From Breznakia sp. PF5-3 (GTDB lineage Bacteria; Bacillota_I; Bacilli_A; Erysipelotrichales; Erysipelotrichaceae): DNA of 27,721 nucleotides. Shown here in pieces: positions 3,689-24,337 of the stretch. The notes beneath the pieces were generated by a model, which was not told the origin of the DNA, made no database searches, and saw nothing but the letters and a program-made list of their open reading frames with translations. Made by a program: the position numbers and the translations under genes. Location of the stretch: positions 1-27,721 of the forward strand of contig NZ_JAQFIQ010000030.1 in assembly GCF_029504745.1 (NCBI RefSeq), read 5' to 3'. Every line of letters begins with the position of its first letter. Positions within the stretch are counted from its first letter, which is position 1.

Positions 3689-4228
3689 TCACATTTCTAT
3701 AACTGAAAATTCATGTGTTGTAGAAAGGACGTTTCTTCTTTTTTCTGGAAGCTTTTTAAGATCTTCTTGATTTTCTTTCTTCACTATAATTGGTGACTTC
3801 TCACTAATACGAAGATATTCTTTAATAATATTGTTACGTTTTTCTACATCTGTTATCGTATGATAATCTCGTTCATGAATTTCTTTTGTAAATAACATTA
3901 TTTCGTTTTCCAATTCCTTAAATTCATTTGCGCAACCCTTTAGTGTTTCACAAAATATTTCTTTTTCTTTCTTAGGCAACAAATATAATGTTACCATACC
4001 AAGTATAAATCCTAAAACCATGCATATTCGAATCATTAAATTATCATTAAAGTAAATAACTGGAAGGCTACTTAACGTTATGATCATGATAAGGATTCTT
4101 ATATTTGTCCGCTTTCTCGCTTCTGAGTGGGCTTTTTGATATACGTCTATATGCCTTTTTCGACTCCACTTTGCACGAATCAAGTATATTTCCATTTGCT
4201 CAATCATTACTTTCTTGCTATTTTCCAT
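3689..4228 (-). CDS. Small 2-TM membrane protein with SLATT/DUF4231-like layout
   Basis: RBS GAGGT 6 nt before the ATG at 4228. Basic N-terminal helix (IYLIRAKWSRKRHIDVYQKAHSEARKR), two adjacent hydrophobic helices (IRILIMIITLSSLPVIYF / MIRICMVLGFILGMVTLYLL), then a roughly 95-aa charged helical tail. The family assignment rests on topology and pattern only. Confidence 0.6.
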   Translation of the reverse strand: MENSKKVMIEQMEIYLIRAKWSRKRHIDVYQKAHSEARKRTNIRILIMIITLSSLPVIYFNDNLMIRICMVLGFILGMVTLYLLPKKEKEIFCETLKGCANEFKELENEIMLFTKEIHERDYHTITDVEKRNNIIKEYLRISEKSPIIVKKENQEDLKKLPEKRRNVLSTTHEFSVIEM

Positions 4229-4370
4229 TTTAATACCTCATCACATTTTCCATCCCTATTAAATCGTTTGTTATTGAATCGTTTTGTATATTCTAAGTAT
4301 AAAACATATATTTTATCCAACTCAAGTGTAACGATCACCTCCATATTTATCTTTCTAACCTAGTTCCCAT

Positions 4371-4440
4371 AAAAAAGACAAGACGACAAATCACTTACAT
4401 GATTAGTCAGTCTTGCCAAATTTCTTTGTTACAATCTAAC
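4371..4440 (-). promoter_or_regulatory. RAT-like antiterminator target overlapping an intrinsic terminator (leader copy 1, upstream of the 2-TM protein gene, downstream of GH84)
   Basis: Minus strand: GUUAGAUUGUAACAAAGAAAUUUGGCAAGACUGACUAAUCA-UGUAAG-UGAUUUGUCGUCUUGUCUUUUUU. The GATTGTAAC...GGCAAGAC box resembles the published RAT consensus GGATTGTTACTG..CAGGCAA(A/G)ACC. GGCAAGAC is also the start of the terminator 5' arm (hairpin 4377-4417, U tract 4371-4376). Confidence 0.7.
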
Positions 4441-4509
4441 TTTACCTATTCATACTATAATACTTCTTTATAATTATATGTTAGCATAGGAATTTTTTAA
4501 ATGCAAAAT

Positions 4510-7500
4510 TTATATGCTTTTTTTATTTTTTCTTCGCATTTTTTCAAGTAACATAAATGCTGATCCAGTTAACAAGAATAGTAGTAACATTTTGTTGGTA
4601 GCATCATTAGTTGAAGGACTTCCCTTCAACTGCAATGCTGCCTCTGCTTTTTCAAAAGCAAGTTTAGCATCTACAAATGCTGCTTCACTTGTTTGTAATG
4701 GATCTAATCCCATTAAGAAATCATACGCTTTCTTGTATTCCTCATAAGACTCTTTTGTGTAACCTGTGGCTGGCTTTAAGATGATATTATCACGATAATC
4801 TTCCATTCCACTTGCTCGTTTTTCTAAAGCAAGCAATGCTGCTTGGATGCGATTCACCATAGCAGAAATTTCCTTTTCACTTCCAGATATAAAGAGTTCT
4901 TTACTATCGTTAAGTAAATTTTCTAATTGCTTATATGAAGATACTGTATAGTTATCTTTATCTACAGTGTTTGCTAGTGCTACTTTATCTTTTAAAGCGA
5001 CAATATTTACAAGTTTGGACTTTGCATCTAATATTGCATTTGCTAGAGCTTCTTCTTCATCTTGGTTATGAGTCTTTTTAGCATCCGCAATTGCTGTAGC
5101 AAGTGCCTTATAAGAATTTTCTGTATAATCTGCAGCCTGTAATGCTTCCGCTTCTTTGATAATCGCTTCTAAATCAACCGTTGCTTTCACTTGAAGATTG
5201 CTTTTGGCACTTTGGATATCTTGTATTGCAGTTGCAATTTCTTCTTTACTTCCTGCTTCTAATAATGCTTTTCCTTTATCTATTTCTTGTTTATACGTAC
5301 CATAACTAGCTTCTGTATAGTTATCTGCATTGATGGTATCAAACTCTGCTATCACTGTCTTTAATGCACTAATATCTACCAAGTTATCAAGCGCATCATC
5401 AAATGCTTTCTGTGCTTCTTTCATATCCTTTGGATGTACTCGTTCAACGCCTGTTTTATCTTTTGCTATCAATGCTTCTAAATCACTTTTTGCATTTGTT
5501 AATGCTTCATAACTTGCTTTTGTATACTTATTTGCTTCCACAAATCCAAATTTATCCAACCCAAGTTCCGCTAATTCTCGATTTCGAATTGAGTATTCTA
5601 AAGCATCTTTAGCCGTATTGATTGCTGTAAGCAATTTATCTGCTTGTACTTGTGATAGGTTATCAACATCTTGAAGTGCTGTTTCTAACTTCGTAATTGC
5701 TTCTTCATAATTTGCATATGTTGCTATCGAATATATGGAATCTGCATTACTCAATTTATGATCCACAATTGCTTGTAATTCACTAATGTTTACTGCTTTA
5801 TCTTTGGCATTCAAACGAGCAGCTTTTAAAGCTCCTAACGCTGCATCTGCAACTTCTTGTGAAACAGAATTTTTATTCGCAATGATATTCTCTGCTACTG
5901 CTTTTGCTTCTTCATAAATTGTTTTACTATCTTTTGTCCATGTAGCTTCTGCACCTTTTGCAACCTCTGCTTCTAACTGTGATGTATCAGCTGCAGTTAT
6001 CGATTTTGTTGACATCATAATCTCTGCTATTTCAGGAACTTTATCATCCCAACTTACCGTTATTGCTACAACTGATTTAGAACTATCAAAAATGAATTCA
6101 TTGATTGCTTGATTTAAATTTCCTAGCGTTACATTTGCTCGTGTACCATCCAAATATGTAACTGCTACAGATGCATTTGAAATCTCTCCTGTTTGAACAA
6201 TTCGCATTGAACTTAACCCTTCGGGTTGTGAGATTCGATAAGTAAATGAAGTGTTTTTTGCAGATGATTTATATGTGGTAGCAAAATCTCTATCAAACAT
6301 GTTTGAAGGAATCTTATCACGTTCTTCTACTGCATCTGCAATTACATCTTTATTTGATTCTGTTGTAATGTATGCACCATCATTAATTTGAATTTCATTA
6401 AATGCTAACCAACGATGAGAATATGTTTTTAAAGGACGAATACGTAAGTATCTTCCTTTGGCATTTAATTTTGTTGCCTCTGCATACATATATCCAGGAT
6501 TTTTTGAATCATGGGTTAACCAAGCAGCATCTTTTGCTACTGAACCATCCCATACATTTTCAAATACACCTGCTTCATTAATTTTCATAAGTGGTGTCCA
6601 ATTTGTACTATTTGGATCATTTGATACTTCAAAAATACCACTACGCATATAATTCAGTTGTGTTTCATTTACATAATAACGAAGCGATGTAAAATCAATT
6701 TCTTGACCTAAATCAAAAACTATTTTTTTACTTGCATCTTGAGGTCCTGTAATTATTCCCATAGTACTCAAGTTTCCATCAAATACATTATTAACATTAT
6801 TAACATTGTTAGCATTTCGCATATCTGAAGAGCTTTCTTGTAATGCAAAATCACTCGTTACAGATTTTTCTGCAATATACATATAAGTAACTTTAAAGTT
6901 TTCAATATTCCATACTTTATTGGTATCCGATGTATTGATAACACGAATATAACACGCATCAATATCATCGTTTGCTGTATACTCTTTCCAAGTTAATGCA
7001 TTCATTGATGTTTGCAATTTAAAGCCTTCTGGCAAAGTATTTGTCTGAATGTTTTCTATCTGCTTAATGTTATCTAATTTAATACCTATATATTGATTTT
7101 GAGCAAGCAATACATTACCACTCGTTAAAAAGGCTTCTCCTTTTGTGTTTGTATTGACTAAGATACTACTATTTGTATTTGTATATAAATGTTTTGTATC
7201 TCCATCCGATGGTACTTCTTTTACTGTGAATTCAGAAATTTTTGCCCAAGATGCTCTTTTCGCAAGATTACGAATACGAATATACCGCGCTTTTGTAGCA
7301 TTCAGCTCAATATCTAATATATCTTTTCCAGATGCTGCTCCAGTGTAACTTTCATATCCATTTACAGCTGTCCATGTTATTCCATCAAGAGATGTTTCAA
7401 CTGTATAATTCATCAACTTATCACTACCGTCAGCACCAACTACAATATGCGTACTTTGTAAATTTGCAATCTTTCCTAAATCATAACCCAAGAAATCATC

Positions 7501-10467
7501 AACCAAGAAACAATCATTTGTCGTATTTCCCCCTCCATCTGGGTCATACCATACATAAGAATTATCATCACCATCATATAAGTTAGTTTCTGGTCCTCGA
7601 TACATGTACCAGCGATCCGTTTTTATAACATTATATTCAATTGGCGAACTATCAATAGCACTTGTTTCTACTTTAAATTCTCCAACTCGCCACCAGATAT
7701 TAACATGGGTAACATTACGAATACGAATTGATTTTGTTGTAATGTTTTGTGCTTCTAAATCAAAATTCTGTACTTTACTATTATTCACATTAGCGATTGT
7801 TTGCCATTCTTCAGCGCTATCTAAATATTCTAAAACACCATCTTTGATTACATCATTTGCATTACTTCCACCTTGCGCAAAAGACACCTTTTTTAATAGT
7901 TGTGGCTCACTAAATGTATACGCTAAATAACTATCTGCAGGTAGTTGATCTTTGCTAGGAGCACTCGCTTTTGAAATCCATACTTCTCCAGCACTATCAC
8001 TTCCTGCATTTCCATCATTTAACACTGACCAATCACTACCATTCATACGATCGCGATTTGATGAATATGTTCCACTTACCTCTGGTTCAGGTTCTATCGT
8101 TTTATTAATTGTTATTTCATGAACATTCAAATATGCATCTTTTACATTATCCTTCGTTGCAATTAAGCGAATCCCCATTGCTTTAAAGTTTGCTGGAAGA
8201 TCTGTTTCATCAAGAATTATTTCTTGATAATTTCCTTGCACTGCTGTATATTCTGTACTATCAATATCTTTCCATTCTTTTCCATCTTCTGTATATTGAA
8301 GTTTTGCATATTCCATATGGTTTTTTCCATTCCCTAATAAGAAACGAAGATAAGAAATATCAATTTTCTTTCCTAATATCACACCAACATAATCACCTTC
8401 ATAAATCCACACTGGATTACGATAGCTTACCATTGTTGAATCATCACCATCAAATACATTTGCTGTACTGCCTGTTGGATTATCACTTCGATTTGTAATA
8501 AATGTTTTACTAACAATATCAGGATCCATAATACTTTCTGCTTTTGTAGCTAAATAGGAATCTAACGTATTAATAAAAGGAACAATATGCTGTACCCCTA
8601 CTTCTGCTTTTTCATTATGATCTACATACCAAAATTCATGTGTTTTTGATTTATCAAATGCCATTTTACCCATCGTTTGATAATTAAAAAGCCCTGTAGA
8701 ATCGTTATTTATAACTGCTTTTATACCATTTAAATAGGCGATTGTAGCATCTGTTGTATCAGACCAACATGCTAACCAATAAATCATTTGGTCTCTTAAA
8801 TACGTATCTCCAGCATAATTGTTAAACGTTTCACTTGCTTCTTTTAAAAGTTCAAACTCTTCAATCATTTGATCTACATCTTCAATGGTTAATGTATCAG
8901 CATTTAACTTATTTTTAAACGCTGTTAACTTAGGTGCTAACTCAACTGACTCTTGAAGCACTGTAACACGACTATCCATATTTTGATTAATCATATGTTT
9001 TGATATTTCTCTAAGTGCTTTTGAACCTGAAGTTTCAAGTGCACTATTATGATCCACGTATTTAAAGGATGCATTCCAAGCTTGATCTGCTTCTTCATTG
9101 CTGCCCCAAATATTCCATGCATAACATGCATTTCCAAAAATAGCCACCTTACTCGGTTCTGATTGTTGCATTGGATTTAAAACAATACCTTGAATATTAC
9201 TAGGATCTACATTTGGGTGTAAAAATGTTGAATAACCACCCATAATCAAATGCTTTTTAGAATTATCTGTACAAGGCCAGTTAATCCAAAGGTATGGTCC
9301 GCGACCTACATTATTTGTAAAAGTTTGTGTAAAGTTTGAAGAAACTTCTCCCCAAACACGACCACCTGTCATAACAATTTGTACATTTTCAGGGAATCGT
9401 TGATAATAAGATTCCCCACTATACATATATTCTTGTGTACAAAATGGCAATGTTATTTTTAAATCTGGATATTCCTTTTGCTTTTCTCTTAACCAATCAC
9501 TCATATCTTCTAATGTTCGAATATAATTATCCCCACCAACATTTCCAGCATCATCAGCTAGAATTGATATTTGACGAACACCAGCATCAATAACTTGATC
9601 AAATTTTGCTTGCATGGTTGCTAAATCCGCTTGATAATTTTCTTCTGAATTATAACGAATCGCATTATACATATATGGATGAAGTGCATACACAAAGCGA
9701 CACTTCGATTTATTTCCTGCTTCAGCCAAAGGTTTAATCTTTGTTTCAATCTCTTCTTCTGTATACAATTCTTTCCATTTTGAATTATGCTTTGGATCAT
9801 CTTTTGGAGCATAGAAATAAGAATTTAATTTATAATTCCCGCCCCATTCCATTAGTGCTATTCGATCTTCTGTAGACCAAGGATTACCATAGTATCCCTC
9901 AATAAATCCACGACTTTCTACATCCGCATAATCCTCAACAACAAAGTTTTGAATCGTATAACTATCTAGTTGTTTAATCACATGATAAAAAGTTGTTAAT
10001 CCATAGTAACAAGCATCTGTATCTTTCCCCAAAACAGTGATTACATTATCTTGTACAGAAAGCAAGTAACTATCCGTTTTATCAAACAAACCAGCTGTTT
10101 TTATCGAACTGTTCTTTTCAGCATATGTATCTACATACCCTTTTGAACCCTGAATACCGACCAAGATATTTGTTTTTCCTTTTTCAACTTTATCTACCTG
10201 TGCAATTTGTAACCCTTTTGAAGAAGCTATATTCGTAAATAATTGTTTTGTATATTCATCAATTCCTTCTTCATAAATTACATTCACTTCATTTTGAATA
10301 ATAAAATCTCCACCTAAATATTCTATTGATTGTGGATTAGGATACAATTCATATTCTATTGTTTCTGCCGATATTTTCATTTCATTATTTTGGTAGAATG
10401 ATTGAAATATACCAGCAATTAAACTAAATATAATTAATAATTTAAAATACTTATAACCTTTTTTCAT
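4510..10467 (-). CDS. Giant secreted GH84 beta-N-acetylglucosaminidase (NagH/NagJ-type) with multiple F5/8-type-C (CBM32-like) modules, FIVAR stalk and C-terminal TM anchor
   Basis: GH84 signatures SRGFIEGYYGNPWSTEDR...SYFYAPKDDPKHNSKWKELY and the catalytic Asp pair in SILADDAGN (about 9550-9555). At least five FDGDxST-type beta-sandwich modules. About 7-9 helical Y(T/S)xxSY...repeats at 4630-6000. Signal peptide MKKGYKYFKLLIIFSLIAG. Start moved to the ATG at 10467 (AAAGGAG 8 nt upstream) instead of the track's GTG at 10500. Confidence 0.92.
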   Translation of the reverse strand: MKKGYKYFKLLIIFSLIAGIFQSFYQNNEMKISAETIEYELYPNPQSIEYLGGDFIIQNEVNVIYEEGIDEYTKQLFTNIASSKGLQIAQVDKVEKGKTNILVGIQGSKGYVDTYAEKNSSIKTAGLFDKTDSYLLSVQDNVITVLGKDTDACYYGLTTFYHVIKQLDSYTIQNFVVEDYADVESRGFIEGYYGNPWSTEDRIALMEWGGNYKLNSYFYAPKDDPKHNSKWKELYTEEEIETKIKPLAEAGNKSKCRFVYALHPYMYNAIRYNSEENYQADLATMQAKFDQVIDAGVRQISILADDAGNVGGDNYIRTLEDMSDWLREKQKEYPDLKITLPFCTQEYMYSGESYYQRFPENVQIVMTGGRVWGEVSSNFTQTFTNNVGRGPYLWINWPCTDNSKKHLIMGGYSTFLHPNVDPSNIQGIVLNPMQQSEPSKVAIFGNACYAWNIWGSNEEADQAWNASFKYVDHNSALETSGSKALREISKHMINQNMDSRVTVLQESVELAPKLTAFKNKLNADTLTIEDVDQMIEEFELLKEASETFNNYAGDTYLRDQMIYWLACWSDTTDATIAYLNGIKAVINNDSTGLFNYQTMGKMAFDKSKTHEFWYVDHNEKAEVGVQHIVPFINTLDSYLATKAESIMDPDIVSKTFITNRSDNPTGSTANVFDGDDSTMVSYRNPVWIYEGDYVGVILGKKIDISYLRFLLGNGKNHMEYAKLQYTEDGKEWKDIDSTEYTAVQGNYQEIILDETDLPANFKAMGIRLIATKDNVKDAYLNVHEITINKTIEPEPEVSGTYSSNRDRMNGSDWSVLNDGNAGSDSAGEVWISKASAPSKDQLPADSYLAYTFSEPQLLKKVSFAQGGSNANDVIKDGVLEYLDSAEEWQTIANVNNSKVQNFDLEAQNITTKSIRIRNVTHVNIWWRVGEFKVETSAIDSSPIEYNVIKTDRWYMYRGPETNLYDGDDNSYVWYDPDGGGNTTNDCFLVDDFLGYDLGKIANLQSTHIVVGADGSDKLMNYTVETSLDGITWTAVNGYESYTGAASGKDILDIELNATKARYIRIRNLAKRASWAKISEFTVKEVPSDGDTKHLYTNTNSSILVNTNTKGEAFLTSGNVLLAQNQYIGIKLDNIKQIENIQTNTLPEGFKLQTSMNALTWKEYTANDDIDACYIRVINTSDTNKVWNIENFKVTYMYIAEKSVTSDFALQESSSDMRNANNVNNVNNVFDGNLSTMGIITGPQDASKKIVFDLGQEIDFTSLRYYVNETQLNYMRSGIFEVSNDPNSTNWTPLMKINEAGVFENVWDGSVAKDAAWLTHDSKNPGYMYAEATKLNAKGRYLRIRPLKTYSHRWLAFNEIQINDGAYITTESNKDVIADAVEERDKIPSNMFDRDFATTYKSSAKNTSFTYRISQPEGLSSMRIVQTGEISNASVAVTYLDGTRANVTLGNLNQAINEFIFDSSKSVVAITVSWDDKVPEIAEIMMSTKSITAADTSQLEAEVAKGAEATWTKDSKTIYEEAKAVAENIIANKNSVSQEVADAALGALKAARLNAKDKAVNISELQAIVDHKLSNADSIYSIATYANYEEAITKLETALQDVDNLSQVQADKLLTAINTAKDALEYSIRNRELAELGLDKFGFVEANKYTKASYEALTNAKSDLEALIAKDKTGVERVHPKDMKEAQKAFDDALDNLVDISALKTVIAEFDTINADNYTEASYGTYKQEIDKGKALLEAGSKEEIATAIQDIQSAKSNLQVKATVDLEAIIKEAEALQAADYTENSYKALATAIADAKKTHNQDEEEALANAILDAKSKLVNIVALKDKVALANTVDKDNYTVSSYKQLENLLNDSKELFISGSEKEISAMVNRIQAALLALEKRASGMEDYRDNIILKPATGYTKESYEEYKKAYDFLMGLDPLQTSEAAFVDAKLAFEKAEAALQLKGSPSTNDATNKMLLLFLLTGSAFMLLEKMRRKNKKSI
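4630..6000 (-). repeat. FIVAR-type helical repeat array (coding) in the GH84 gene
   Basis: Reiterated units of about 60-70 aa of the type (N)YTxxSYxxxxxAxxxAxxLL...(e.g. YTEASYGTYKQEIDKGKALLEAG, YTENSYKALATAIADAKK, YTVSSYKQLENLLNDSKELF, YTKESYEEYKKAYDFL). Confidence 0.75.
9050..10360 (-). other. GH84 N-terminal domain + catalytic TIM-barrel region of the 4510-10467 gene
   Basis: Region from YELYPNPQSIEYLGG through the DD catalytic pair to ...NACYAWNIWGS. Boundaries are approximate. Confidence 0.7.
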
Positions 10468-10548
10468 TTTATATTCTCCTTTTTCTTTTTTCTTCTTCAC
10501 TGCTGTTTGATAATACTTCTACTATCACCTCCATGGTTCAATTTCTAT

Positions 10549-10620
10549 AAAAAAAGACAAGCCCGACAAATCACCTTTGTGATTAGTCAGTCTTGCCAAA
10601 TTTCTTTGTTACAATCTAAC
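10549..10620 (-). promoter_or_regulatory. RAT-like antiterminator target overlapping an intrinsic terminator (leader copy 2, between the TetR stop and the GH84 start)
   Basis: Minus strand: GGUUAGAUUGUAACAAAGAAAUUUGGCAAGACUGACUAAUCAC-AAAG-GUGAUUUGUCGGGCUUGUCUUUUUUU. 19-position stem with 17 pairs, followed by U7. The 42 nt tgattagtcagtcttgccaaatttctttgttacaatctaac are identical to copy 1. Confidence 0.75.
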
Positions 10621-10633
10621 CTTATTTATTATT

Positions 10634-11197: not shown

Positions 11198-11262
11198 AAT
11201 ATCCTCCAAATTATCAATTACGTAACATCAATTACCATATTAACATAGTGGAGCTAAAACCT

Positions 11263-11284
11263 TTATAGAGTGTGTACTCTATAA
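11263..11284. promoter_or_regulatory. Candidate TetR operator: perfect 9-bp inverted repeat TTATAGAGT-N4-ACTCTATAA
   Basis: Palindrome seen directly. It lies 5 bp downstream of the -10 of the TetR-gene promoter, the classic autorepression position. Confidence 0.6.
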
Positions 11285-11288
11285 GCAT

Positions 11289-11317
11289 ATATTAGCATAT
11301 CGATATTTTAAATGCAA
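11289..11317 (-). promoter_or_regulatory. Sigma-A-type promoter of the TetR gene (TTGCAT-17-TAATAT)
   Basis: -35 TTGCAT (11312-11317), 17-nt spacer, -10 TAATAT (11289-11294), read on the minus strand. Confidence 0.6.
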
Positions 11318-12013: not shown

Positions 12014-12030
12014 CTTCTATATTCTATTTA

Positions 12031-16400: not shown

Positions 16401-18132
16401 CATTTTCAGAAACTAGAATTTGATACTTTGGAGCTGCCGATTCAAAATGAATTAAAACTTCACTAATATCTTTTACTTCACCTAAGTCAACCGTTAACCA
16501 TGCTTCATCAATTTTATTTCCTGACCATCTTGTAGACATACTTCCATCTACAACGTTTTCACCAACAAACTGTGGATATTTCCACGTACCATCAGTATTT
16601 TTATCACCCTCAACACCTGAATAAGTGACAGCTTTTTTATATGCTAAATTAAATGTTTCTAAATCATTATAAGCTTTTATCAAAGCTTCTGTTGCTGTAT
16701 TAACTTGTTCTTGTGTAGTAAGTGTATTTACACCTGTTTTAGCATCTTCTAAAGCTTTTTCAAATGCTTTTGTACTTGTTTCAGTAAATGCTTTTGTATC
16801 TACTGCTTCATATTCATTAATCATTGCCTTTAACCATTGATATGACACAGCATCTTCATCTAAGAACTCTACTTCCGCCCAGAATAAGTTATGATCAGAT
16901 AATGTTGTTTTCACATTTTGAACATTATTGATCTTTAAATTTCTACTCACTAAAATATTATCAATACAATTATGCTTCATTGTATTATCAACACCATTAT
17001 AAGTTTCATGCCAAATTCCATCATATCCATTTGCCATATCCATATCTTCTAAGAAGGTATAAAACTCACTATAGTATTGATCCGCATTAAAATCTCCTAC
17101 GGCAATCTTATATTCAATAGGATCTGCTGCCAGAGCTGCTTTCAATTGAGCAAATTGTTTTTCTCTTATTTTTGGTGTTTCCCAACTTAAATGCAAGTTA
17201 TAAAAAGCAATCTTTTTTCCATTTTTCGTTATAACTGAGCGTTGAAAAACACGAGCTTCATCTGCCCCCGTTGTATCTACATATGTTGTTGATGTATCAT
17301 CAAGAGCATAACGTGATGCACTTCCAATTCCATATTGTCCACCACTAAAATCAATCGCTTTAGAAAAATAACTTGCCGTATAATTATTGGAAGCAAATTT
17401 TTCTAACATATCATAATTATTTCTACCTGTATTTACATCAACTTCTTGTAAACCTACAATTTCAAGATTATAAAGATCACTAAGATTACGTTGTGCATCA
17501 ACATCAGGTTTTTTTCCTGCTGCAATATTGAATGTTCCAACCCGTAGTGTATCATCTTTAATTGCCATATCATCATGTTCATATACTTCTAATTCATAGA
17601 TACTACTACCATAGTAACTTCCATTCGTAGCATGTAACCATTGTTTATGTTGCACATATTTCACATATCGTGCACTCTTTCCTTGTGCAGAAAAAGTCTT
17701 AGAAACCGTATTTCCACGACTTCCATCGCTGATGTTAGCAATCGAAGTATAGGTCTTTCCATCTTTGGAGATCATTATTTCATATGCTGTTGTTTCCGCA
17801 TGAAAATCTACTACAATATCTCCGATGCTATATTCTTTTCCAAGGTCAACTTCTAACCATTGTTCATATGCTTCTGGTCCTGCTTTAATATTTTCAGCAG
17901 ACCATCTTTTATTAACATCCTGTGTAATTCCATCAACTGCCATTTCTCCAACAAATTTTGGATAAGTCCATGTGCCATCTCCTTTTTTTCCACCTTCAAC
18001 ACCAGAGTATGTCACCGTTTTATGCAATGCTAAATTATCTGTTTCAGCAGAAATAACAGCTGAAAATGAAGTTTGAAACATACTGATTAGCACAGCTAAT
18101 CCTAAACTAAGCTTTAATATTTTCTTTATCAT
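12031..18132 (-). CDS. Giant secreted polysaccharide lyase family 8 enzyme (hyaluronate/chondroitin-lyase type). Domain order: F5/8-C, EEP, FIVAR, F5/8-C, 2x Big_2, PL8, FIVAR stalk, TM anchor
   Basis: PL8 signatures TGNWWDWQIGCTHQL, DGSVIQHTAHAYTGSYGNELM, RGWHTADGALYLY, YWTAIDSLRLAGTTTD. EEP block LRVGTFNIAAGK...GLQEV...GDFNAD...LSDHNLFWAEVEF. Big_2-like VTYVSDNELVAKVDTDGTITGVGAGTATITVKS. Signal peptide MIKKILKLSLGLAVLISMFQTSFSA. RBS AAGGGGGAAAT before the ATG at 18132. Confidence 0.92.
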   Translation of the reverse strand: MIKKILKLSLGLAVLISMFQTSFSAVISAETDNLALHKTVTYSGVEGGKKGDGTWTYPKFVGEMAVDGITQDVNKRWSAENIKAGPEAYEQWLEVDLGKEYSIGDIVVDFHAETTAYEIMISKDGKTYTSIANISDGSRGNTVSKTFSAQGKSARYVKYVQHKQWLHATNGSYYGSSIYELEVYEHDDMAIKDDTLRVGTFNIAAGKKPDVDAQRNLSDLYNLEIVGLQEVDVNTGRNNYDMLEKFASNNYTASYFSKAIDFSGGQYGIGSASRYALDDTSTTYVDTTGADEARVFQRSVITKNGKKIAFYNLHLSWETPKIREKQFAQLKAALAADPIEYKIAVGDFNADQYYSEFYTFLEDMDMANGYDGIWHETYNGVDNTMKHNCIDNILVSRNLKINNVQNVKTTLSDHNLFWAEVEFLDEDAVSYQWLKAMINEYEAVDTKAFTETSTKAFEKALEDAKTGVNTLTTQEQVNTATEALIKAYNDLETFNLAYKKAVTYSGVEGDKNTDGTWKYPQFVGENVVDGSMSTRWSGNKIDEAWLTVDLGEVKDISEVLIHFESAAPKYQILVSENGSDWTKVYEEMNGEHGVDGVVQASFTMTKARYVKYQQLERWLHSNKQLYSTSFYEMEVYKEFLIEEITLPSTSDVISIGDEIALKPEITPTLAQHKAVTYVSDNELVAKVDTDGTITGVGAGTATITVKSAVDDNVFATFEVEIVDGPVKVSKLVFDEEELNLTPRDKRFVEYSVYPSKAIDADLEVTYSSDDENVAVVNKDGLVECVGLGKAVITVASKENPEIKATLDVNVEQPTYNPDYDTMQDRWLRRVVGDDTLDLNDPDVAAYIKNVSDEAQELWDSMHKESDRTTLWDMSDSTVAADYTTQFTKIKKLTLAFGTKGSALYQNKALYNDILSALDFMVVNRKYNGVYYTGNWWDWQIGCTHQLVDTLIILKDYSEYTDIEAAVKSVEGYAKDPAIQWPSYTASGANRTDIGLAVLGSAIVARNDSRMNLVLTKVPDVMKLVTKGDGLYADGSVIQHTAHAYTGSYGNELMKGIGKIQSITAGTDWEIKDARIENVYNTAVEGYIPLMERGRMMAMVNGRSISRAPGTNPFTTELASGSETISNLMLISQFAPEKYSSQIDEAIKYWLQGSAEEYDFFANARDIESLLNAKALLNDNNIEAKRYTGMKVYGSMDRITQSKDTYAVGLSMYSSRINNYEYGNTENPRGWHTADGALYLYTNDFKQYGEGYWTAIDSLRLAGTTTDTRSRNNGSDQSEKSAQSLVGGVSDGINGTGAMFLNKGHVTNMNLKAKKSWFFLGDKIVAVGSDIDGTTTDTIETTIENRVISDDSKISVNGTKWTNAKETLNLGEGSYVHYDEASTNTQIGYYFPTAQDVKALVEERTGKYSDINNYFVNDKTYTMDFFSLGINHGSTSVDGKYEYVLFPDASEASLAAYAKDNDLEIINNENAHAISEGNVFALNTFADNIEVNGFKVSAPACIYTETVDGVMTISISNPKQNAISLKLELTDGYKSLVSKSDKVTQNGDETFSINTSGAAGKTFTIVVELNVDRSELDEKIAEAEAIIDDDKEDTMTSSSWDAFKDAYETAVNLDVDASASEVKEAVKALDEAIKNLEPRASKEAVDALETLIDTCKTMEDDFTEADFADMKALIEESETLLAKGREDLSSSEVSKAIEDLFEAKKVLEANKAETNSLLDTLEIHVEIAQDILDGDTSSYRPGKVKELETAVAEGKALVEANSKDKAAIIAATDKIADAMSQLWDIVDKSELTSLIIIAEKYAEADYSAESWAKLETALAAAKTVVANDDATETEVAKAYKDLFDAINGLERKINTEALEREIAAVEKILENKTKYVASSIKGLPAALESAKKVLANGKTQAEIDAATKALTKEKLKARLKADTSALSKMVTKANNLEVKGYTAGSVNTLNAAIKEAQAVLNNEEVTQEEVKAAELKLQKAMNGLKKVSSPSKAATSAKGVASGDTTDVNTLVSLMALAGLAMYGTYRRKKYIRK
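13440..15700 (-). other. PL8 lyase core (alpha-helical N domain + beta-sandwich domains)
   Basis: Extends from DYDTMQDRWLRRVVG to ...KTFTIVVELNV and contains all PL8 motifs listed for the parent CDS. Boundaries are approximate. Confidence 0.75.
16864..17547 (-). other. Endonuclease/exonuclease/phosphatase (EEP, DNase I / sphingomyelinase fold) domain embedded in the PL8 protein
   Basis: The ordered EEP catalytic motifs appear retained: FNI(N), LQEV(E), NLHLS(H), GDFN(D,N), IDNIL(D), SDHN(D,H). Confidence 0.75.
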
Positions 18133-18214
18133 ATTTCCCCCTTGTTTTATTAATCATTCTTCAATACATATGCAAACATAAAAACCAAACCAATAAAACC
18201 TCCTCTCTAAGAAG

Positions 18215-18286
18215 AAAAAAAGGGCAATTCAAAATAAACCATCATATGATTTATTAGTCTTGCCCTTTATTCAGTTACAATCCAAT
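18215..18286 (-). promoter_or_regulatory. RAT-like antiterminator target overlapping an intrinsic terminator (leader copy 3, upstream of the PL8 gene)
   Basis: Minus strand: UUGGAUUGUAACUGAAUAAAGGGCAAGACUAAUAAAUCAU-AUG-AUGGUUUAUUUUGAAUUGCCCUUUUUUU. GGATTGTAACTGAATAAAG-GGCAAGAC is the copy closest to the sacB/licS RAT (GGxTTGTTACTGATAAAGCAGGCAAGACC). Outer GGGCAA/UUGCCC and inner AAUAAAUCAU/AUGGUUUAUU stems are followed by U7. Confidence 0.75.
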
Positions 18287-18331
18287 TTTATCTATTCATT
18301 TTTTACTTCTACTTTCATTATATCGAAAGCC

Positions 18332-18359
18332 ATTATAAAGTATTTGCATAAAATAGCAA
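18332..18359 (-). promoter_or_regulatory. Sigma-A-type promoter for the PL8 leader (TTGCTA-16-TATAAT)
   Basis: -35 TTGCTA (18354-18359), 16-nt spacer, -10 TATAAT (18332-18337) on the minus strand, about 45 nt upstream of the RAT box. Confidence 0.6.
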
Positions 18360-18395
18360 AATATTTGTACTTTTTAAATTTCTAAATATTCAACA

Positions 18396-18434
18396 ATAAA
18401 AACCCCCATATTAGGTTTTTATCTAATTGGGGGT
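18396..18434 (-). terminator. Intrinsic terminator after the GH20 gene
   Basis: Minus strand ACCCCCAAUUAG-AUAAAAAC-CUAAUAUGGGGGUUUUUAUU. GC-rich CCCCCA/UGGGGG stem base followed by a U tract. Confidence 0.8.
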
Positions 18435-18442
18435 TATCATTA

Positions 18443-19842
18443 CTATTTAGTATGTTTCAATCTTTTTCTGAATGTTCCATACATCGCAAGTCCTGCCAAT
18501 GCCATCAAACCAACTAGACTATTTATATCTGTTGTATCTCCTGATGCTACTCCTTTCGCTGATGTCGATGCTTTTCTACCTCCATCTTTACTACTTGGTG
18601 CTTTGCTTGGACTATTTACTTTCTTTAAGTTTTTCATCGCTTTTTGTAACTTCATTTCTGCTGCTTTCACTTCCGCTTCACTTACTTCTTCATTCTTAAT
18701 GACTGCTTGTGCTTCTTTGATTGCTGCATTCAACGCTTTTACACTGTCTGCTGTATATCCTTTTACTTCTAAGTTGTTTGCTTTTGTAACCATCTTAGAT
18801 AACGCACTTGTATCTGCTTTCAATCTTGCTTTTAACTTCTCTTTTGTTAATGCTTTTGTTGCTGCATCAATCTCGGCTTGCGTTTTACCATTTGCTAATA
18901 CATTCTTAGCACTTTCTAATGCTGTTGGTAATCCTTTGATTGATGATGCTACATACTTCGCTTTGTTTGCTAAGATCTTTTCAACCGCTGCGATTTCTCT
19001 TTCTAACGCTTCTGTATTGATCTTTCTTTCCAATCCATTGATTGCATCAAACAAGTCTTTGTATGCTTTCGCCACTTGTGCTTCTGTTGCATCATCATTC
19101 GCTACTATCGTTTTCGCTGCTGCCAATGCTGTTTCTAGTTTTACCCAGCTTTCTGCACTGTAGTCTGCTTCTGCATACTTCTCAGCAATGATGATAAGTG
19201 ATGTCAATTCACTCTTATCAACAATATCCCACAACTGACTCATTGCATCCGCAATCTTGTCTGTTGCTGCGATAATCGCTGCTTTGTCTTTGCTGTTTGC
19301 TTCTACTAATGCTTTTCCTTCAGCTACTGCTTTTTCTAATTCTTTTACTTTTCCTGGTCGATAGCTACTTGTATCTCCATCTAAGATATCTTGTGCTATT
19401 TCCACATGTATCTCAAGTGTATCTAGTAAAGAATTCGTTTCTGCTTTATTCGCTTCTAATGCTTTCTTTGCATCCAATAAGTCTTCTATTGCTTTGCTTA
19501 CTTCACTTGATGAAAGGTCTTCTCTACCTTTTGCTAGTAATGTTTCACTTGCTTCAATAAGTGTTTTCATACCTGCAAAGTCTGCTTCTAAGAAATCATC
19601 TTCCATTGCTTTACAAGTATCTATTAATGTTTCTAATGCATCTACTGCTGTTTCTGATGCACGTGGTTCTAGATTCTTAATTGCTTCTTCTAATGCTAAT
19701 TTGGCTACTTTCACTTCAATAGCTGAAGCATTTTCATCCAAATTCACAGCTGTTTCATAAGCATTCATAAATGTGTTCCATGAAGATGATGTCATTGTAT
19801 CTTCTTTATCATTGTCGATGATTGCTTCTGCTTGTTCAATTA
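18443..19842 (-). repeat. Copy B of the roughly 1.4 kb near-identical coding repeat (FIVAR stalk + C-terminal anchor module)
   Basis: See copy A. Protein tracts such as KAETNSLLDTLEIHVEIAQDILDGDTSSYRPGKVKELE and SQLWDIVDKSELTSLIIIAEKYAEADYSAESW are identical in both genes. An extra 10 codons (PSSKDGGRKA-like) lie at about 18566-18595. Confidence 0.9.
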
Positions 19843-22800
19843 GCGCTTGCAATTCTTTATTATCGCCTCTTTCATTTAATACTAACGATGTCATCTTAGA
19901 CATTAATTGTCCTTTCATGATTTCTACATTATTAGCATCTGGATTTGTTTCTTCTACCAAAGTTTTTGCTTCTGCTATTTTATCTTGAAGCGCATCCCAA
20001 GATTCAGAAGTATAACCAATATTTTCAATTGCTTCTGCTTGTTCAATTAATGTACTCAAGCCATCAGTATCGGCAACTGTGTTTGCCAAGTGTAATTTCA
20101 ATTCCGTAGCAGTACCATTGTTATTAACCGCTTGAAGATATACTAAACGTACATGTTGAGTAGTTACTTCATCAAATTCTAAAACAACTGCATCTCTTGT
20201 AGATGTTGAAAGTGTTCCTTCTTTTACTTTCGTATAATTAATACCATCACTACTTACTTGAACTTCATATTTTGTAGCCATTCCATTTGTTCCACCAGTT
20301 TGACGTGGTAAATATGTTAATCCATTAATTGCTTCTGGTGTATCAATTTTTAAATCAATCCAATGCGGCATTATTGTTATGTTCCAATTTGTATGCCACA
20401 TTGTTCCTTCATCACCATCAATTGCTAATTCAGGACCTGAACCTCCTTGATAAGATGATGCAGTAGCTTTAAGTCTATTATTATCAACATAATTTATGTT
20501 TCCTTTAGCTTTTAACTCTAATCCTTGTAATGCATCTGCAAGAAGTTTTTCATAACCATCTACTACATCTTGTAAAGATATAGGAAGATCTTCACGAATA
20601 CTTTCTAATACAGATGTTAATACATTTACAGAAGCATCTGTAAACATTGATAAGTCATCTGCGATAAGATTGCGATATGCATCTACACGACTATAATCTG
20701 CTTTTTCATAATCAAGTGTATCAATAATGTTATTTATTTGTTCAACTAATGTTTGTACTTCATTAGCATCTGGTGCAAACTTACCTAACACTTGCTCAGC
20801 ATCTTCCACAAGTGCTGTTAATTCTGCATTTTCTTTATCTTTTAATATTTCTTTTGCATTCCATATTGCATAATCCAACTTCATTGTTGAATTGTATTCT
20901 TTACTAACACCTAAACGTACATCATCTACATATCCTATGAAACTATTACTCTTACTTCCAATTCTAGCAAATGGAATCATCGTTGTTGCTAATAGTGGTC
21001 TTCCTTCTACTTTTTCACCATCACCAAGTGTATCAACAAGTTCTCCATTAACATATAATTGTGCAACGTTATGTTGATTTTTAATTTCTAATTCAACCCA
21101 TTCATTTACTGGCAATGTATAATCAAATGAATAATCAAAGTTTTCTCTTGTGAATCCCACTTTACCAGTATCTTTTTGAACAGCTTTAATACTTCCATAG
21201 TCACTCTCAAATAAAATTTGTTCATCTGTACTATCTGAAGTTCTTTTTACTTTTACACGAAGATCGTTTCCTAAACCTATGGTTGTAAGCTCACTCTCTA
21301 CATAACTCTTACCACCTTTTAGAGAAAGAGCATTTTTATTATCAACCTTTTTGATTTCAGCATTCTCTCCAGCTTTCAAATCTCTTTTATTTGCTGTACT
21401 ATCTGTTAATGAATCCATAAGGAAATGAGCAATTTCTTCTCCCTTACTATCTACTTTATAATCAAAGTTTGTACCTGGTGCACTTCCTAGAATATCTTTT
21501 GTAGCGGTTGCTTGCGCTAGATCCATTGATCCTTTTCCCCACAATTTCGCCGCCATTAATGGAATTGGTGCCTTTATACGATCGTATACATCATATTCAC
21601 TTACTCCATTATCAAGATAATCAGTCATATCATTCCAAACCGCAATTGCTCCACCAATCATCTGCTTATCACCTGCTGGAATTGTCACACCACCAATAGA
21701 ATTAATCGCTAAGTTGTATACCGTACCATTATTTAAATAATCATAATAGTACCCTGCATTTGGAACGATATAATAATTTCCATCATTACAATTAATTAAA
21801 TCATAACCTTCTTCATACATTGCATTCATATTAGCATAACCAAAGTTCCATAAATTCATCTGTACATCTTTACTTCGTACAGGTGTTGTCCCTTTACTAA
21901 CGCTTAGACTACCCCAAATTCTTGCTGTTCTTCCTGTATCTTGCGTATATTTCAACATATCATCTGCAAACTTACGATAAGCTTCATGATTTGCATTATA
22001 TTCATCTGCTCCAACATGAATGATAGTATCTTCATCAAAGACAGGGTTTGATACATCAGAACCCATATATTCATCAAAGATGTCCTTTACAAAAGCAATA
22101 CTTTCATCATATTTTGATGTTAAGTTTAAATGATCATTATCACGTCCATATGTTCCATGACGCAAATCAGGACGCACTTTTGTAAGTGCCAATGAATGTG
22201 CTGGTGTATCAATTTCTGGAACAATATTAACTCCATAGATTCTTGATTCCTTAATGAAATTTCTAAACTCATCTTTCGTATAGAATACATCTGTACTTGT
22301 TAAATCCGCTTGATTTAATCCATTATTTCCACCTTTTTTAATATCTGATTCTAATCGGAATCCAGAATAAGCATCCATTGGATCTAACCCTTTTGCAGAA
22401 TAATTTTCAAGTGGTATTAAATTATCATTTAAATGTACTTGGAAGTCATTCATCTTATACCATGACATTTCTTTAACAACTTGTTCTAAATAATCTAAAG
22501 TAAATGTTTTTCTACCAACATCTAAGATAAAACCACGAACCTCATAAAGTGGATAATCTCTCGTAATTCCTTTTGGAATACTATCATTGGCTTTTATACT
22601 TTGTAAAATTGTTCTTGTAGCCCAGTATGCACCTGTTGTTGTTTCTGCCTCTACTTTTACACTATCTGAGATATCAATGATATAACCTTCTTCTTGTAAT
22701 CCTTTTGATGTATCACTTGTAAGTGCAAAGTAAAAATCTTGTGCTGATGCACTACCATTTACAACTTCAATATCATTCCCTGTAATTTCCTTATAATCCT

Positions 22801-24187
22801 TTGCAAACGCTTCTGCTACATCTTGTAATTTAGCATCTGCAATTACTACACGACTTGCTTGGGTTGGAACAAATTCTCCACTTCCACCTTTCCACTCACG
22901 TAATTCAGGAAGAACAACAGGAGATGCATTATCTGTTTCTTCTTTTATGTAAGTTCCTGGAATTTTTACTTCTTTTTCTTCAAATTCATATTTTTCTGTT
23001 TTCTTATCAACAATCTTGAATGATACTTTCACAGATGTATCTACTACTGGTTCATAAATTGATAAATCTTCATCTACCACTTGTTCATAATCTGTACCAT
23101 TGTATGTAATATCATAATCTTCTGTATCTGGATATTTTACTACTAACTTTTTATCTCCTTTTACAGGTTGAACAATTTCAATATTTTCCTTAATATCTGA
23201 AATGTTTTCTTTTGGTTCTCCTCCATATACTTCCATCTCATATAAAGAAACCGTGTTCCATTCTACTCCACCATCTGGATCTTCTTTAGTAGCACTATCG
23301 ATATATAAACGAACATAACGAGCTTTTACAACTTCATCTAAGACGATTTTTTCATTTATCTTTGATGGACGATCATTAAATTCTTTAACTTTGGTCCAAT
23401 CACTTTCTTGCATTGGTTCACTTAATGTATCAGCAACTTGAATTGAATATTTTGTTGCTTTTCTATTTTCCCAAAACAAACGTAATGTTTTAACATTCAT
23501 CTTTGCTCCTAGGTCAACATAAAGCCAATGTGGCGCATTTTTAACTGCACTTGCCCACCTTGATGTACGTGAACTTGTATCTCCATCAAAAGCTTTTGCT
23601 GCAGATAAAGTACTTGCTTCAATTGTACTAGCAACACCTGTTTTCCCTAAGGCTACATTTTCATTTGGATCTTGTGGTGCTTCATCACCTGTATATTTCA
23701 CTTTAAAATCTCTACATGAAACACTTGGATATCCCTTTACTTTGGTAACTTCAAGTTTCACATACCTACCTACTACAGGCGCTTTTAAAATATCTTCTGA
23801 TTTCTTAGTAGTATTCCCTACTTTTGCTACAACTGGTGTTCCCCACTCACTTGTACTATCAGAAACATAAATATTGTAATTTTCCGCATAAACACTATCA
23901 CTTTCCCAAATCATTGAGAAATAGTCCATGTTTAAAGATTCTCCCAAATCAACATAAGCCCATTGTGTAGCATCCCTTTCTGATGACCAACGACTCTCTG
24001 GATCACCATCTGTCAAATACGATGCAGGCATAGATGAATATGCATTACTAGCAGTAACAGGTTTGTTAAGTGCTAAATCATCAAATGATGGTTCTTGAGC
24101 ATTAATTTTAATACCGCCTGGAAGCATCGTTGTTATACATAATATACTTACTAAGACATACTTATAAAACTTTTTGATTTTTTTCAT
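18443..24187 (-). CDS. Giant secreted GH20 beta-N-acetylhexosaminidase (lacto-N-biosidase/StrH-like). Domain order: 2x F5/8-C, GH20b + GH20, LamG-like, FIVAR, F5/8-C, FIVAR stalk, TM anchor
   Basis: GH20 signatures YEVRGFILDVGRKTFTLDYLEQVVKEMSWYKMNDFQVHLNDN, VPEIDTPAHSLA, and the catalytic D-E in HVGADEY (22001-22006). LamG-like block ...VAQLYVNGELVDT...IGYVDDVRLG. Signal peptide MKKIKKFYKYVLVSILCITTMLPGG. Start moved to the ATG at 24187 rather than the GTG at 24256, which lies in the leader. Confidence 0.92.
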   Translation of the reverse strand: MKKIKKFYKYVLVSILCITTMLPGGIKINAQEPSFDDLALNKPVTASNAYSSMPASYLTDGDPESRWSSERDATQWAYVDLGESLNMDYFSMIWESDSVYAENYNIYVSDSTSEWGTPVVAKVGNTTKKSEDILKAPVVGRYVKLEVTKVKGYPSVSCRDFKVKYTGDEAPQDPNENVALGKTGVASTIEASTLSAAKAFDGDTSSRTSRWASAVKNAPHWLYVDLGAKMNVKTLRLFWENRKATKYSIQVADTLSEPMQESDWTKVKEFNDRPSKINEKIVLDEVVKARYVRLYIDSATKEDPDGGVEWNTVSLYEMEVYGGEPKENISDIKENIEIVQPVKGDKKLVVKYPDTEDYDITYNGTDYEQVVDEDLSIYEPVVDTSVKVSFKIVDKKTEKYEFEEKEVKIPGTYIKEETDNASPVVLPELREWKGGSGEFVPTQASRVVIADAKLQDVAEAFAKDYKEITGNDIEVVNGSASAQDFYFALTSDTSKGLQEEGYIIDISDSVKVEAETTTGAYWATRTILQSIKANDSIPKGITRDYPLYEVRGFILDVGRKTFTLDYLEQVVKEMSWYKMNDFQVHLNDNLIPLENYSAKGLDPMDAYSGFRLESDIKKGGNNGLNQADLTSTDVFYTKDEFRNFIKESRIYGVNIVPEIDTPAHSLALTKVRPDLRHGTYGRDNDHLNLTSKYDESIAFVKDIFDEYMGSDVSNPVFDEDTIIHVGADEYNANHEAYRKFADDMLKYTQDTGRTARIWGSLSVSKGTTPVRSKDVQMNLWNFGYANMNAMYEEGYDLINCNDGNYYIVPNAGYYYDYLNNGTVYNLAINSIGGVTIPAGDKQMIGGAIAVWNDMTDYLDNGVSEYDVYDRIKAPIPLMAAKLWGKGSMDLAQATATKDILGSAPGTNFDYKVDSKGEEIAHFLMDSLTDSTANKRDLKAGENAEIKKVDNKNALSLKGGKSYVESELTTIGLGNDLRVKVKRTSDSTDEQILFESDYGSIKAVQKDTGKVGFTRENFDYSFDYTLPVNEWVELEIKNQHNVAQLYVNGELVDTLGDGEKVEGRPLLATTMIPFARIGSKSNSFIGYVDDVRLGVSKEYNSTMKLDYAIWNAKEILKDKENAELTALVEDAEQVLGKFAPDANEVQTLVEQINNIIDTLDYEKADYSRVDAYRNLIADDLSMFTDASVNVLTSVLESIREDLPISLQDVVDGYEKLLADALQGLELKAKGNINYVDNNRLKATASSYQGGSGPELAIDGDEGTMWHTNWNITIMPHWIDLKIDTPEAINGLTYLPRQTGGTNGMATKYEVQVSSDGINYTKVKEGTLSTSTRDAVVLEFDEVTTQHVRLVYLQAVNNNGTATELKLHLANTVADTDGLSTLIEQAEAIENIGYTSESWDALQDKIAEAKTLVEETNPDANNVEIMKGQLMSKMTSLVLNERGDNKELQALIEQAEAIIDNDKEDTMTSSSWNTFMNAYETAVNLDENASAIEVKVAKLALEEAIKNLEPRASETAVDALETLIDTCKAMEDDFLEADFAGMKTLIEASETLLAKGREDLSSSEVSKAIEDLLDAKKALEANKAETNSLLDTLEIHVEIAQDILDGDTSSYRPGKVKELEKAVAEGKALVEANSKDKAAIIAATDKIADAMSQLWDIVDKSELTSLIIIAEKYAEADYSAESWVKLETALAAAKTIVANDDATEAQVAKAYKDLFDAINGLERKINTEALEREIAAVEKILANKAKYVASSIKGLPTALESAKNVLANGKTQAEIDAATKALTKEKLKARLKADTSALSKMVTKANNLEVKGYTADSVKALNAAIKEAQAVIKNEEVSEAEVKAAEMKLQKAMKNLKKVNSPSKAPSSKDGGRKASTSAKGVASGDTTDINSLVGLMALAGLAMYGTFRKRLKHTK
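21530..22925 (-). other. GH20b + GH20 catalytic region of the 18443-24187 gene
   Basis: Runs from VVLPELREWKGGSGEF to PIPLMAAKLWGKG. Boundaries are approximate. Confidence 0.7.
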
Positions 24188-24273
24188 ATTTTCTTTTCCT
24201 TTTTTAGTTCCTTTCTCATTTAGTTCACAAACTCCTGCACCTTTTCTTTCTATCACCTCATATCTAACAAATT

Positions 24274-24337
24274 AAAAAACTGACCTAAATCTCCCTATGA
24301 TTCATGCCAGTTTTGCCTACTTAAAGTTACAATCTAA
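24274..24337 (-). promoter_or_regulatory. RAT-like antiterminator target overlapping an intrinsic terminator (leader copy 4, upstream of the GH20 gene)
   Basis: Minus strand: GUUAGAUUGUAACUUUAAGUAGGCAAAACUGGCAUGAAUC-AUAGGGA-GAUUUAGGUCAGUUUUUU. GATTGTAAC...AGGCAAAAC matches the bglP/licS-type RAT 3' half (CAGGCAAAACC). The hairpin CUGGCAUGAAUC/GAUUUAGGUCAG is followed by U6. Confidence 0.7.

Follow-up and report, generated by a model that had tools for sequence, protein, structure and literature searches.

RAT/terminator leaders of probable BglG/SacY/LicT type precede three giant glycan-active surface enzymes and a small membrane protein in Breznakia sp. PF5-3

In Bacillus subtilis, the antiterminator SacY controls the secreted levansucrase (sacB), and LicT controls the secreted lichenase (licS). 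Another member of the BglG/SacY family, NagY of Enterococcus faecalis, is encoded together with nagE, a gene of the N-acetylglucosamine (GlcNAc) phosphotransferase system (PTS); NagY binds a ribonucleic antiterminator (RAT)/terminator in the 5' untranslated region (UTR) of hylA, which codes for a long, cell-wall-anchored, FIVAR-bearing lyase of polysaccharide lyase family 8 (PL8), and it is needed for hylA expression (Soussan et al., PMC9981650). RNA sequencing (RNA-seq) and RNA immunoprecipitation sequencing (RIP-seq) extended the NagY regulon to the glycoside hydrolase (GH) families GH20 (EF0114), GH18, GH13, and GH35 and to a second PL8 enzyme (PMC12502629). Here, we analyze four leader elements in a 27,721-nt stretch of DNA from Breznakia sp. 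PF5-3 (contig NZ_JAQFIQ010000030.1), referred to below as the window. They precede orf179, which codes for a small protein with two predicted transmembrane (TM) helices, and three genes for surface enzymes of about 2000 amino acids (aa), belonging to GH84, PL8, and GH20. We consider it likely that all four act as conditional transcription terminators of the BglG/SacY/LicT class.

The arrangement resembles that of NagY and hylA in that a gene for a FIVAR-bearing surface PL8 enzyme has, in its 5' UTR, a terminator overlapped by a RAT; hylA is monocistronic and NagY acts on it in trans, sensing GlcNAc, the product of the host-glycan enzymes of its own regulon. The two also differ. The Breznakia RATs are near-consensus sites of the LicT/SacY/BglG type (GGCAAGACU), whereas the NagY sites resemble the consensus little and end in a GCRUGGA foot; GH84 is a target in Breznakia, and the conserved one; and the host is not E. 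faecalis but a member of the Erysipelotrichaceae, from a genus found in insect guts.

The pattern GATTGTAAC-N(5-14)-GGCAARAC has exactly four matches in the window, all of them on the minus strand (4410-4436, 10590-10616, 18257-18282, and 24310-24334), and none in 100 dinucleotide-preserving shuffles. An earlier note on this DNA had placed the elements at 4371-4440, 10549-10620, 18215-18286, and 24274-24337, in agreement with our re-measured positions. It had also given G or A as the base preceding GGCAA; this is incorrect for copies 1 and 2, which have a U there. All four RATs are found in leaders on the coding strand, 100-180 nt before the start codon. Their positions and those of the associated terminators are as follows (R1 is the covariance model described below; z-scores compare the minimum free energy (MFE) of the hairpin with that of shuffled sequences).

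4409 to 4437, minus strand: RAT copy 1 (AGAUUGUAACAAAGAAAUUUGGCAAGACU); R1 33.4 bits, E 1.4e-9; also a pattern match
10589 to 10617, minus strand: RAT copy 2, identical to RAT copy 1; R1 E 1.4e-9
18256 to 18283, minus strand: RAT copy 3 (GGAUUGUAACUGAAUAAAGGGCAAGACU); R1 29.6 bits, E 3.2e-8
24309 to 24335, minus strand: RAT copy 4 (AGAUUGUAACUUUAAGUAGGCAAAACU); R1 33.0 bits, E 1.9e-9
4371 to 4417, minus strand: terminator 1, with U6 at 4376-4371 and the RAT 3' end GGCAAGACU as its 5' arm; fold -21.6 kcal/mol, z -3.7
10549 to 10597, minus strand: terminator 2, with U7 at 10555-10549; fold -23.3 kcal/mol, z -4.6
18215 to 18268, minus strand: terminator 3, with U7 at 18221-18215; fold -20.9 kcal/mol, z -4.1
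24274 to 24314, minus strand: terminator 4, with a partly paired U tract at 24279-24274; fold -16.1 kcal/mol, z -2.7

The covariance model R1 was based on an alignment (A2) of 30 RATs from other genomes, with none from the window. It finds the four window sites alone (E 1.4e-9 to 3.2e-8; next best E 1.6), which bears out the earlier assignment of these elements to RAT/terminator modules of the BglG/SacY/LicT type. The comparison set came from a motif scan of one genome per species, which returned at least 120 stretches, including many chance matches in unrelated phyla; among the matches listed, some 35 from Firmicutes and enterobacteria are clearly RAT/terminators. Downstream genes were inspected for 16 loci with a GTAAC RAT, most of which feed R1. 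They code mainly for 277-aa BglG/LicT-like proteins, BglF-type enzymes II (EII) of the PTS, and phospho-beta-glucosidases. In outline, the RAT consensus is GGAUUGUNAC...GGCAARACC; the window copies also agree with its published form GGATTGTTACTG-N6/7-CAGGCGAGACC from the bglGTH operon of Clostridium acetobutylicum (PMC12628678). A scan of metagenome contigs with AGATTGTAAC...GGCAARACT returned 73 stretches, nearly all of them chance matches, with no close relative among them.

The 30-sequence set supports the textbook RAT fold. Its closing pair is GC in 25 sequences, AU in 3, and GU in 2, the pairs of the upper stem covary, and its covariation score was not reached by any of 500 shuffles. Covariation of the closing pair and the upper stem, which had been proposed from the window copies, is thus confirmed and is stronger in the larger set. 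The proposed change of the closing pair from G-C to A-U holds in part, copy 3 having G.U. Within the Breznakia subfamily, the closing pair is AU, GC, or GU and pair 11-20 is AU, UA, or UG, with 92.5% of cells paired, the sample being small and the statistics modest. The RATs of copies 1 and 2 are both perfect 29-mers, in which the upper stem CAAA/UUUG carries a GAAA loop; the two copies are near-identical duplicates, and sharing extends to promoter-proximal and post-terminator sequences. The 29-nt architecture is that of the LicT and SacY sites of B. subtilis and the BglG sites of Escherichia coli: closing pairs, a pair of internal loops, and an upper stem that ends in a tetraloop, which is GAAA for copies 1 and 2. 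At those sites, too, the RAT 3' half serves also as the terminator 5' arm. In its intercistronic position, copy 2 resembles t2 of E. coli bgl. The Breznakia elements differ from these sites by an A at position 8 and an A-U (or G.U) closing pair.

Other classes of leader RNA, namely a riboswitch, a T-box, a two-hairpin ANTAR site, or attenuation by upstream open reading frames (uORFs), were considered as well. Short uORFs do begin at AUGGAGGUG in copies 1 and 2. The Rfam scan of the window, however, yielded just two chance microRNA matches (E 0.7-0.85), neither at the four elements; the hexaloop pair of the ANTAR type is absent, and the RAT model fits at E of about 1e-9. We regard membership in one of these other classes as very improbable.

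The four RATs and their terminators have the physical properties expected of an antitermination switch. Folded alone, the RAT hairpins (27-29 nt) are weak (-1.6 to -4.1 kcal/mol), and a weak hairpin combined with a strong overlapping terminator is what a protein-stabilized antiterminator requires. That every box leads into a stable hairpin with a U6-U7 tract had been noticed earlier and is supported by MFE values from -16.1 to -23.3 kcal/mol (z from -2.7 to -4.6). The overlap between the box and the 5' arm of the terminator is likewise real, but its size, given as 8 nt, measures 9, 9, 13, and 6 nt in copies 1 to 4. Through this overlap of the RAT 3' part with the 5' arm, the two folds are mutually exclusive at all four sites.

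The sequence AAUCA on the 5' side of the upper terminator stem (4404-4400, 10584-10580, 18248-18244, and 24300-24296) is invariant in all five Breznakia copies, including the one from Breznakia pachnodae (L033, see below), and the strand that pairs with it varies (UGAUU, UGGUU, GAUUU). This could be due to shared ancestry or to an extra function.

A promoter scan detected sigma-70-like sites 30-45 nt 5' of the RAT for copies 1 and 3.

4473 to 4501, minus strand: sigma-70-like promoter of leader 1 (TTTAAA-17-TATAAT), about 30 nt 5' of RAT 1; 10/12 positions, consensus match only
18332 to 18359, minus strand: sigma-70-like promoter of leader 3 (TTGCTA-16-TATAAT); 10/12 positions, consensus match only

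The same scan showed nothing convincing for copy 4 and no promoter of its own for copy 2, the transcription of which probably begins at the promoter of the TetR gene before it. The box AAAAAGTACAAA(T/C)AT is identical at 18361-18375 and 24411-24425 (minus strand), 76-92 nt 5' of RAT 3 and RAT 4, and a related box, AAAAAGCATATAAAT, is found 5' of RAT 1; it is either part of a duplicated promoter cassette or a DNA operator.

We envisage the following course of events. Transcription would start 30-45 nt upstream of copies 1 and 3 or, for copy 2, from the TetR promoter. By default, the RNA would fold into the strong terminator hairpin with its U tract, and transcription would stop before the gene. 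An antiterminator encoded in trans, with an RNA-binding domain (CAT) and PTS regulation domains (PRD), would be active while its PTS sugar is imported via the cognate EII; as a dimer, it would bind and stabilize the weak RAT hairpin. Since the RAT 3' half (GGCAAGACU) doubles as the 5' arm of the terminator, RAT formation would exclude the terminator, and RNA polymerase would then read into GH84, PL8, GH20, or orf179.

The identity of the 3' half also bears on whether the locus is simply the NagY regulon in another genus, with a NagY orthologue (GlcT-like and coupled to the GlcNAc PTS NagE) acting by the same mechanism. NagY acts on the gene for a long, FIVAR-bearing enzyme of PL8 and has a GH20 enzyme in its regulon (PMC9981650, PMC12502629), and GH84, GH20, and PL8 action have GlcNAc as their common product. 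The NagY RAT, however, is poorly conserved relative to the consensus and has the terminator foot GCRUGGA (PMC9981650). In the window copies, the 3' half reads GGCAAGACU or GGCAAAACU, which is of the LicT/SacY/BglG class, and the GCRUGGA foot was not found in them. In addition, R1 does not detect a NagY-type PL8 leader (...ACUAGGCAUGGA...) from contig L199. We thus consider a NagY orthologue an improbable regulator. With the 3' half of the LicT/SacY/BglG class, the cognate antiterminator is, judged from the sites themselves, probably not a NagY orthologue, and the sugar cannot be inferred by analogy. GlcNAc or a GlcNAc-containing oligosaccharide would be the natural guess for the inducing sugar, as the common product of GH84, PL8, and GH20.

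The leader from L199, a metagenome contig from ENA, is an independent illustration of the E. faecalis-type arrangement. It is located at 9643-9712 (plus strand) before a gene for a PL8 enzyme (1243 aa, FIVAR) and reads ...ACUAGGUUAUACUAGGCAUGGAAAA...UUUUUCAUGCC-U7, with a GCAUGGA foot and a terminator of -28 kcal/mol.

All window copies have GTAAC where classical sites have GTTAC, which the earlier note had interpreted as a dedicated specificity variant. This view could not be upheld. GTAAC RATs are common before ordinary bgl operons and occur, among the matches listed, in Streptococcus, Paenibacillus, Clostridium, relatives of Bacillus, and enterobacteria. In many bgl operons, the antiterminator gene and the EII gene are each preceded by a RAT, one of them GTAAC and the other GTTAC, with about 1 kb between the two, so that the same protein must read both. 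The orthologous GH84 leader in a relative (L201) has GTTAC and a G-C closing pair. Neither can the targets be called unusual as such: E. faecalis NagY controls hylA (PL8) as well as GH20 and GH18 enzymes, and sacB and licS are classical secreted-enzyme targets that, as secreted polysaccharide-active enzymes controlled in trans, resemble the Breznakia genes. With the NagY regulon in print, a dispersed host-glycan regulon under a single GlcNAc-sensing PRD antiterminator is an already published system. Classical RAT regulons differ from the window in the size of the targets, here surface enzymes of about 2000 aa, and in the density of sites, here four within 20 kb. Two further RATs precede non-PTS genes, one in a Lachnospiraceae metagenome-assembled genome (L057, about 3099-3125, plus strand), before a gene for a 1005-aa secreted-looking protein with an N-terminal hydrophobic segment, and one with an A-U closing pair before galK-galE on a metagenome contig (L155, 5388-5416, plus strand); RAT targets are thus not confined to PTS genes.

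The GTAAC box can also be viewed as DNA. In copies 1, 2, and 4, GUUAGAUUGUAAC can form a 4-bp inverted repeat, and a TetR gene abuts copy 2, so that the conserved box might be an operator with the palindrome GTTA-N5-TAAC, bound by the adjacent TetR protein or another regulator. The palindrome, however, is broken in copy 3 (AUUG...UAAC) and absent from L201 and from canonical RATs. An operator would leave the conserved 3' half GGCAAGAC and the overlap with the terminator without a role, and the site is located downstream of the promoters, inside the transcript. We find this explanation hardly credible, and the candidate TetR operator GTTA-N5-TAAC was rejected because the palindrome is not kept in copy 3 or L201.

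Comparison with relatives singles out the GH84 leader. In B. pachnodae (L033), the order TetR-RAT/terminator-GH84 is the same (TetR at 2305-2913, minus strand), and R1 detects the RAT with E 1.4e-6. Its upper stem is shorter by one whole base pair (CAAA/UUUG to CAA/UUG) and has a GAUA loop, the hairpin being kept, and the terminator has compensatory changes. A more distant relative is represented by the metagenomic contigs L201 and L203, the PL8 genes of which are 65-67% identical to that of the window. Their GH84 gene is preceded by the RAT/terminator GGATTGTTACTTTAATTAGGCAAGACC (R1 E 3.7e-7, terminator z -5.4), and at their PL8 gene a plain promoter but no RAT was found. There is also no RAT at the PL8 gene of the closest full-length homologue (L198) or of Erysipelothrix (L200). 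As far as can be read from these sequences, RAT control of GH84 is the core that is conserved in three lineages (PF5-3, B. pachnodae, and the metagenomic relative), and in the PF5-3 lineage the leader cassette seems to have spread recently, and in a lineage-specific manner, to PL8, GH20, and orf179. The presence of the TetR gene directly 5' of the GH84 RAT in both Breznakia species suggests two control layers, a promoter repressor and intercistronic antitermination.

We then considered the regulator. As had been stated before, the 27.7-kb window encodes no antiterminator, PTS gene, or sugar kinase. The search was extended by the 10 kb beyond its right end, using contig JAQFIR010000013.1 of GCA_029504775.1 (L197), to which the window is identical. 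In contrast to classical RAT loci, no antiterminator gene and no EII gene of the Glc/Bgl family is present in the window and these 10 kb. About 1-5 kb past the right end of the window (L197, 5272-9302), a GntR/UTRA regulator gene and, behind it, an operon for a mannose-family PTS (EIIA-man, BtpA, EIIB-sorb, EIIC-Sor, and EIID-AGA) share the strand of the giant genes; further genes are unannotated. The 10 kb, including this operon, contain no RAT. A mannose-family PTS is not known as the EII type that controls BglG-family antiterminators. This PTS probably imports an amino-sugar product and would fit a glycan-foraging neighborhood.

Several points weigh against the assignment of the four elements as RAT-controlled terminators. 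A CAT-PRD gene was not found in the window or in the next 10 kb of the contig. The training RATs of R1 were fished with the GTAAC pattern, so that the sequence component of the R1 scores is partly circular, the structural component not. The upper stem has only 2 bp in RAT copies 3 and 4; stems of 2 bp are equally present in RATs of ordinary bgl loci (e.g., L013 and L026). Terminator 4 shares with RAT 4 just the last 6 nt of the latter (AAAACU), and its free U tract is weak. Finally, the PL8 orthologues of the closest relatives are without a RAT, so that the copies at PL8 and GH20 are of recent origin and have yet to stand the test of evolution.

The elements might, alternatively, be plain constitutive terminators or attenuators that end GH20, TetR, and GH84, the RAT-like boxes being inert relics copied with the leaders. 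In copies 1-3, the hairpin is indeed the first structure resembling a terminator behind the stop codon of the preceding gene on this strand, no other being reported by a scan that missed these very hairpins; copies 1 and 2 are near-identical duplicates, and no CAT-PRD regulator was found in the window and the 10 kb beyond. Copy 4, however, is located behind a divergent gene and has nothing upstream to terminate, the RAT before GH84 has been kept with compensatory and paired changes in three lineages, and a 6-kb gene separated from its promoter by a constitutive terminator would be silenced. This makes inert terminators an explanation with little chance of being correct, and we retain the assignment as conditional terminators. 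Under that assignment, the hairpins of copies 1-3 may, more speculatively, double as the 3' ends of GH20, TetR, and GH84, with coupling by read-through upon induction.

Taken further, one LicT/SacY-class antiterminator would gate the four terminators in series on a single strand, with very long read-through transcripts that fuse the array, stabilization by boxes resembling Shine-Dalgarno (SD) sequences, and co-induction of orf179; we consider it unlikely that all of this applies jointly. As parts of this scheme, the hairpins of copies 1-3 may be the sole apparent terminators after GH20, TetR, and GH84, and the SD-like boxes may stabilize the 6-kb mRNAs, perhaps after processing of the leader, by analogy with that of nagY by RNase III. 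If the scheme were true, a role of the 2TM-effector-like orf179 beside secreted enzymes would be new.

The SD-like boxes are a regular feature of the leaders, one perfect box being present 12-30 nt 3' of every U tract and 57-106 nt 5' of the real start codon.

4334 to 4342, minus strand: SD-like box GGAGGUGAU after terminator 1, 106 nt before the real start codon of orf179
10524 to 10532, minus strand: SD-like box GGAGGUGAU after terminator 2
18199 to 18205, minus strand: SD-like box GAGGAGG after terminator 3
24252 to 24259, minus strand: SD-like box GAGGUGAU after terminator 4

In the whole window, GAGGTGAT has three occurrences, every one at these leaders. A comparable box is found 3' of the terminator in B. 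pachnodae (L033, about 2185-2194), in L201 (about 2310-2322), and in the NagY-type leader of L199 (about 9733-9744). STAB-SD sequences are mRNA stabilizers of Firmicutes, an example being the cryIIIA leader of B. thuringiensis. The Breznakia boxes resemble them as perfect SD-like boxes (GGAGGUGAU) within the 5' UTR, distant from the real start codon, and differ from them in being located directly after a terminator rather than near a known 5' end. We conjecture that they may be STAB-SD-like stabilizers. A uORF role of the AUGGAGGUG box was rejected, the ORFs having 45, 21, and 2 codons and not being conserved.

We found no literature on antitermination in Breznakia. To our knowledge, control of extracellular glycan-degrading enzymes by RAT and PRD proteins has been demonstrated experimentally only in Bacillus and, recently, in Enterococcus. 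The four elements would extend such control to the Erysipelotrichaceae and to GH84. What is new here is the lineage, GH84 as a conserved target, and an example of cassette duplication; the mechanism itself is already known. The regulon would have grown by copying of a promoter-RAT-terminator-leader cassette of about 150 nt before new genes. The four sites provide a search model for the sensor, consisting of the antiterminator and its PTS, and this sensor would reveal the nutrient signal upon which an insect-gut symbiont deploys its largest surface enzymes. The term host glycan would here have to be read as insect glycan, that is, chitin, glycoproteins of the peritrophic matrix, and chondroitin-like glycosaminoglycans.

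The genes in question are listed below. Pfam matches and gene order bear out the targets named earlier, orf179, GH84, PL8, and GH20 being located behind copies 1 to 4.

3689 to 4228, minus strand: orf179, 179 aa, two predicted TM helices, behind copy 1; no Pfam family
4510 to 10467, minus strand: GH84 (NAGidase), 1985 aa, with signal peptide, F5/8-type-C and FIVAR domains, and C-terminal anchor, behind copy 2; from Pfam and inspection of the termini
10634 to 11209, minus strand: TetR-family regulator gene, ending 16 nt before RAT 2; Pfam TetR_N
12031 to 18132, minus strand: PL8 polysaccharide lyase, 2033 aa, behind copy 3; Pfam Lyase_8_N, Lyase_8, Lyase_8_C, and FIVAR
18443 to 24187, minus strand: GH20 beta-hexosaminidase, 1914 aa, behind copy 4; Pfam Glyco_hydro_20, Glyco_hydro_20b, and FIVAR

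Each of the three giant enzymes begins with a signal-peptide-like N-terminus, contains F5/8-type-C and FIVAR domains, and ends in a hydrophobic C-terminal anchor. Between PL8 and GH20, the C-terminal 479 aa, made up of FIVAR repeats plus the anchor, are 84% identical (12034-13455 vs. 18446-19880, minus strand), which points to a recent exchange of a domain or segment.

The small protein orf179 is an orphan, its sole match among 5.8e9 proteins being orf179 itself. It had been described as SLATT-like. Pfam shows no SLATT match even at E <= 10; a weak similarity is found to the PADLOC model "Effector 2TM" (PDLC00696, CBASS-type; E 1.9e-4 over aa 2-160), and two more 2TM models match with E 1e-3 to 2e-3. 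An orphan of this kind is odd company for secreted glycosidases.

Between the convergent genes for an Fe-ADH and a PNPOx-like protein, a perfect GC-poor hairpin with runs of A and U on its flanks is found at 25793-25832. It matches mir-1252 of Rfam by chance (E 0.71) and looks like a bidirectional terminator.

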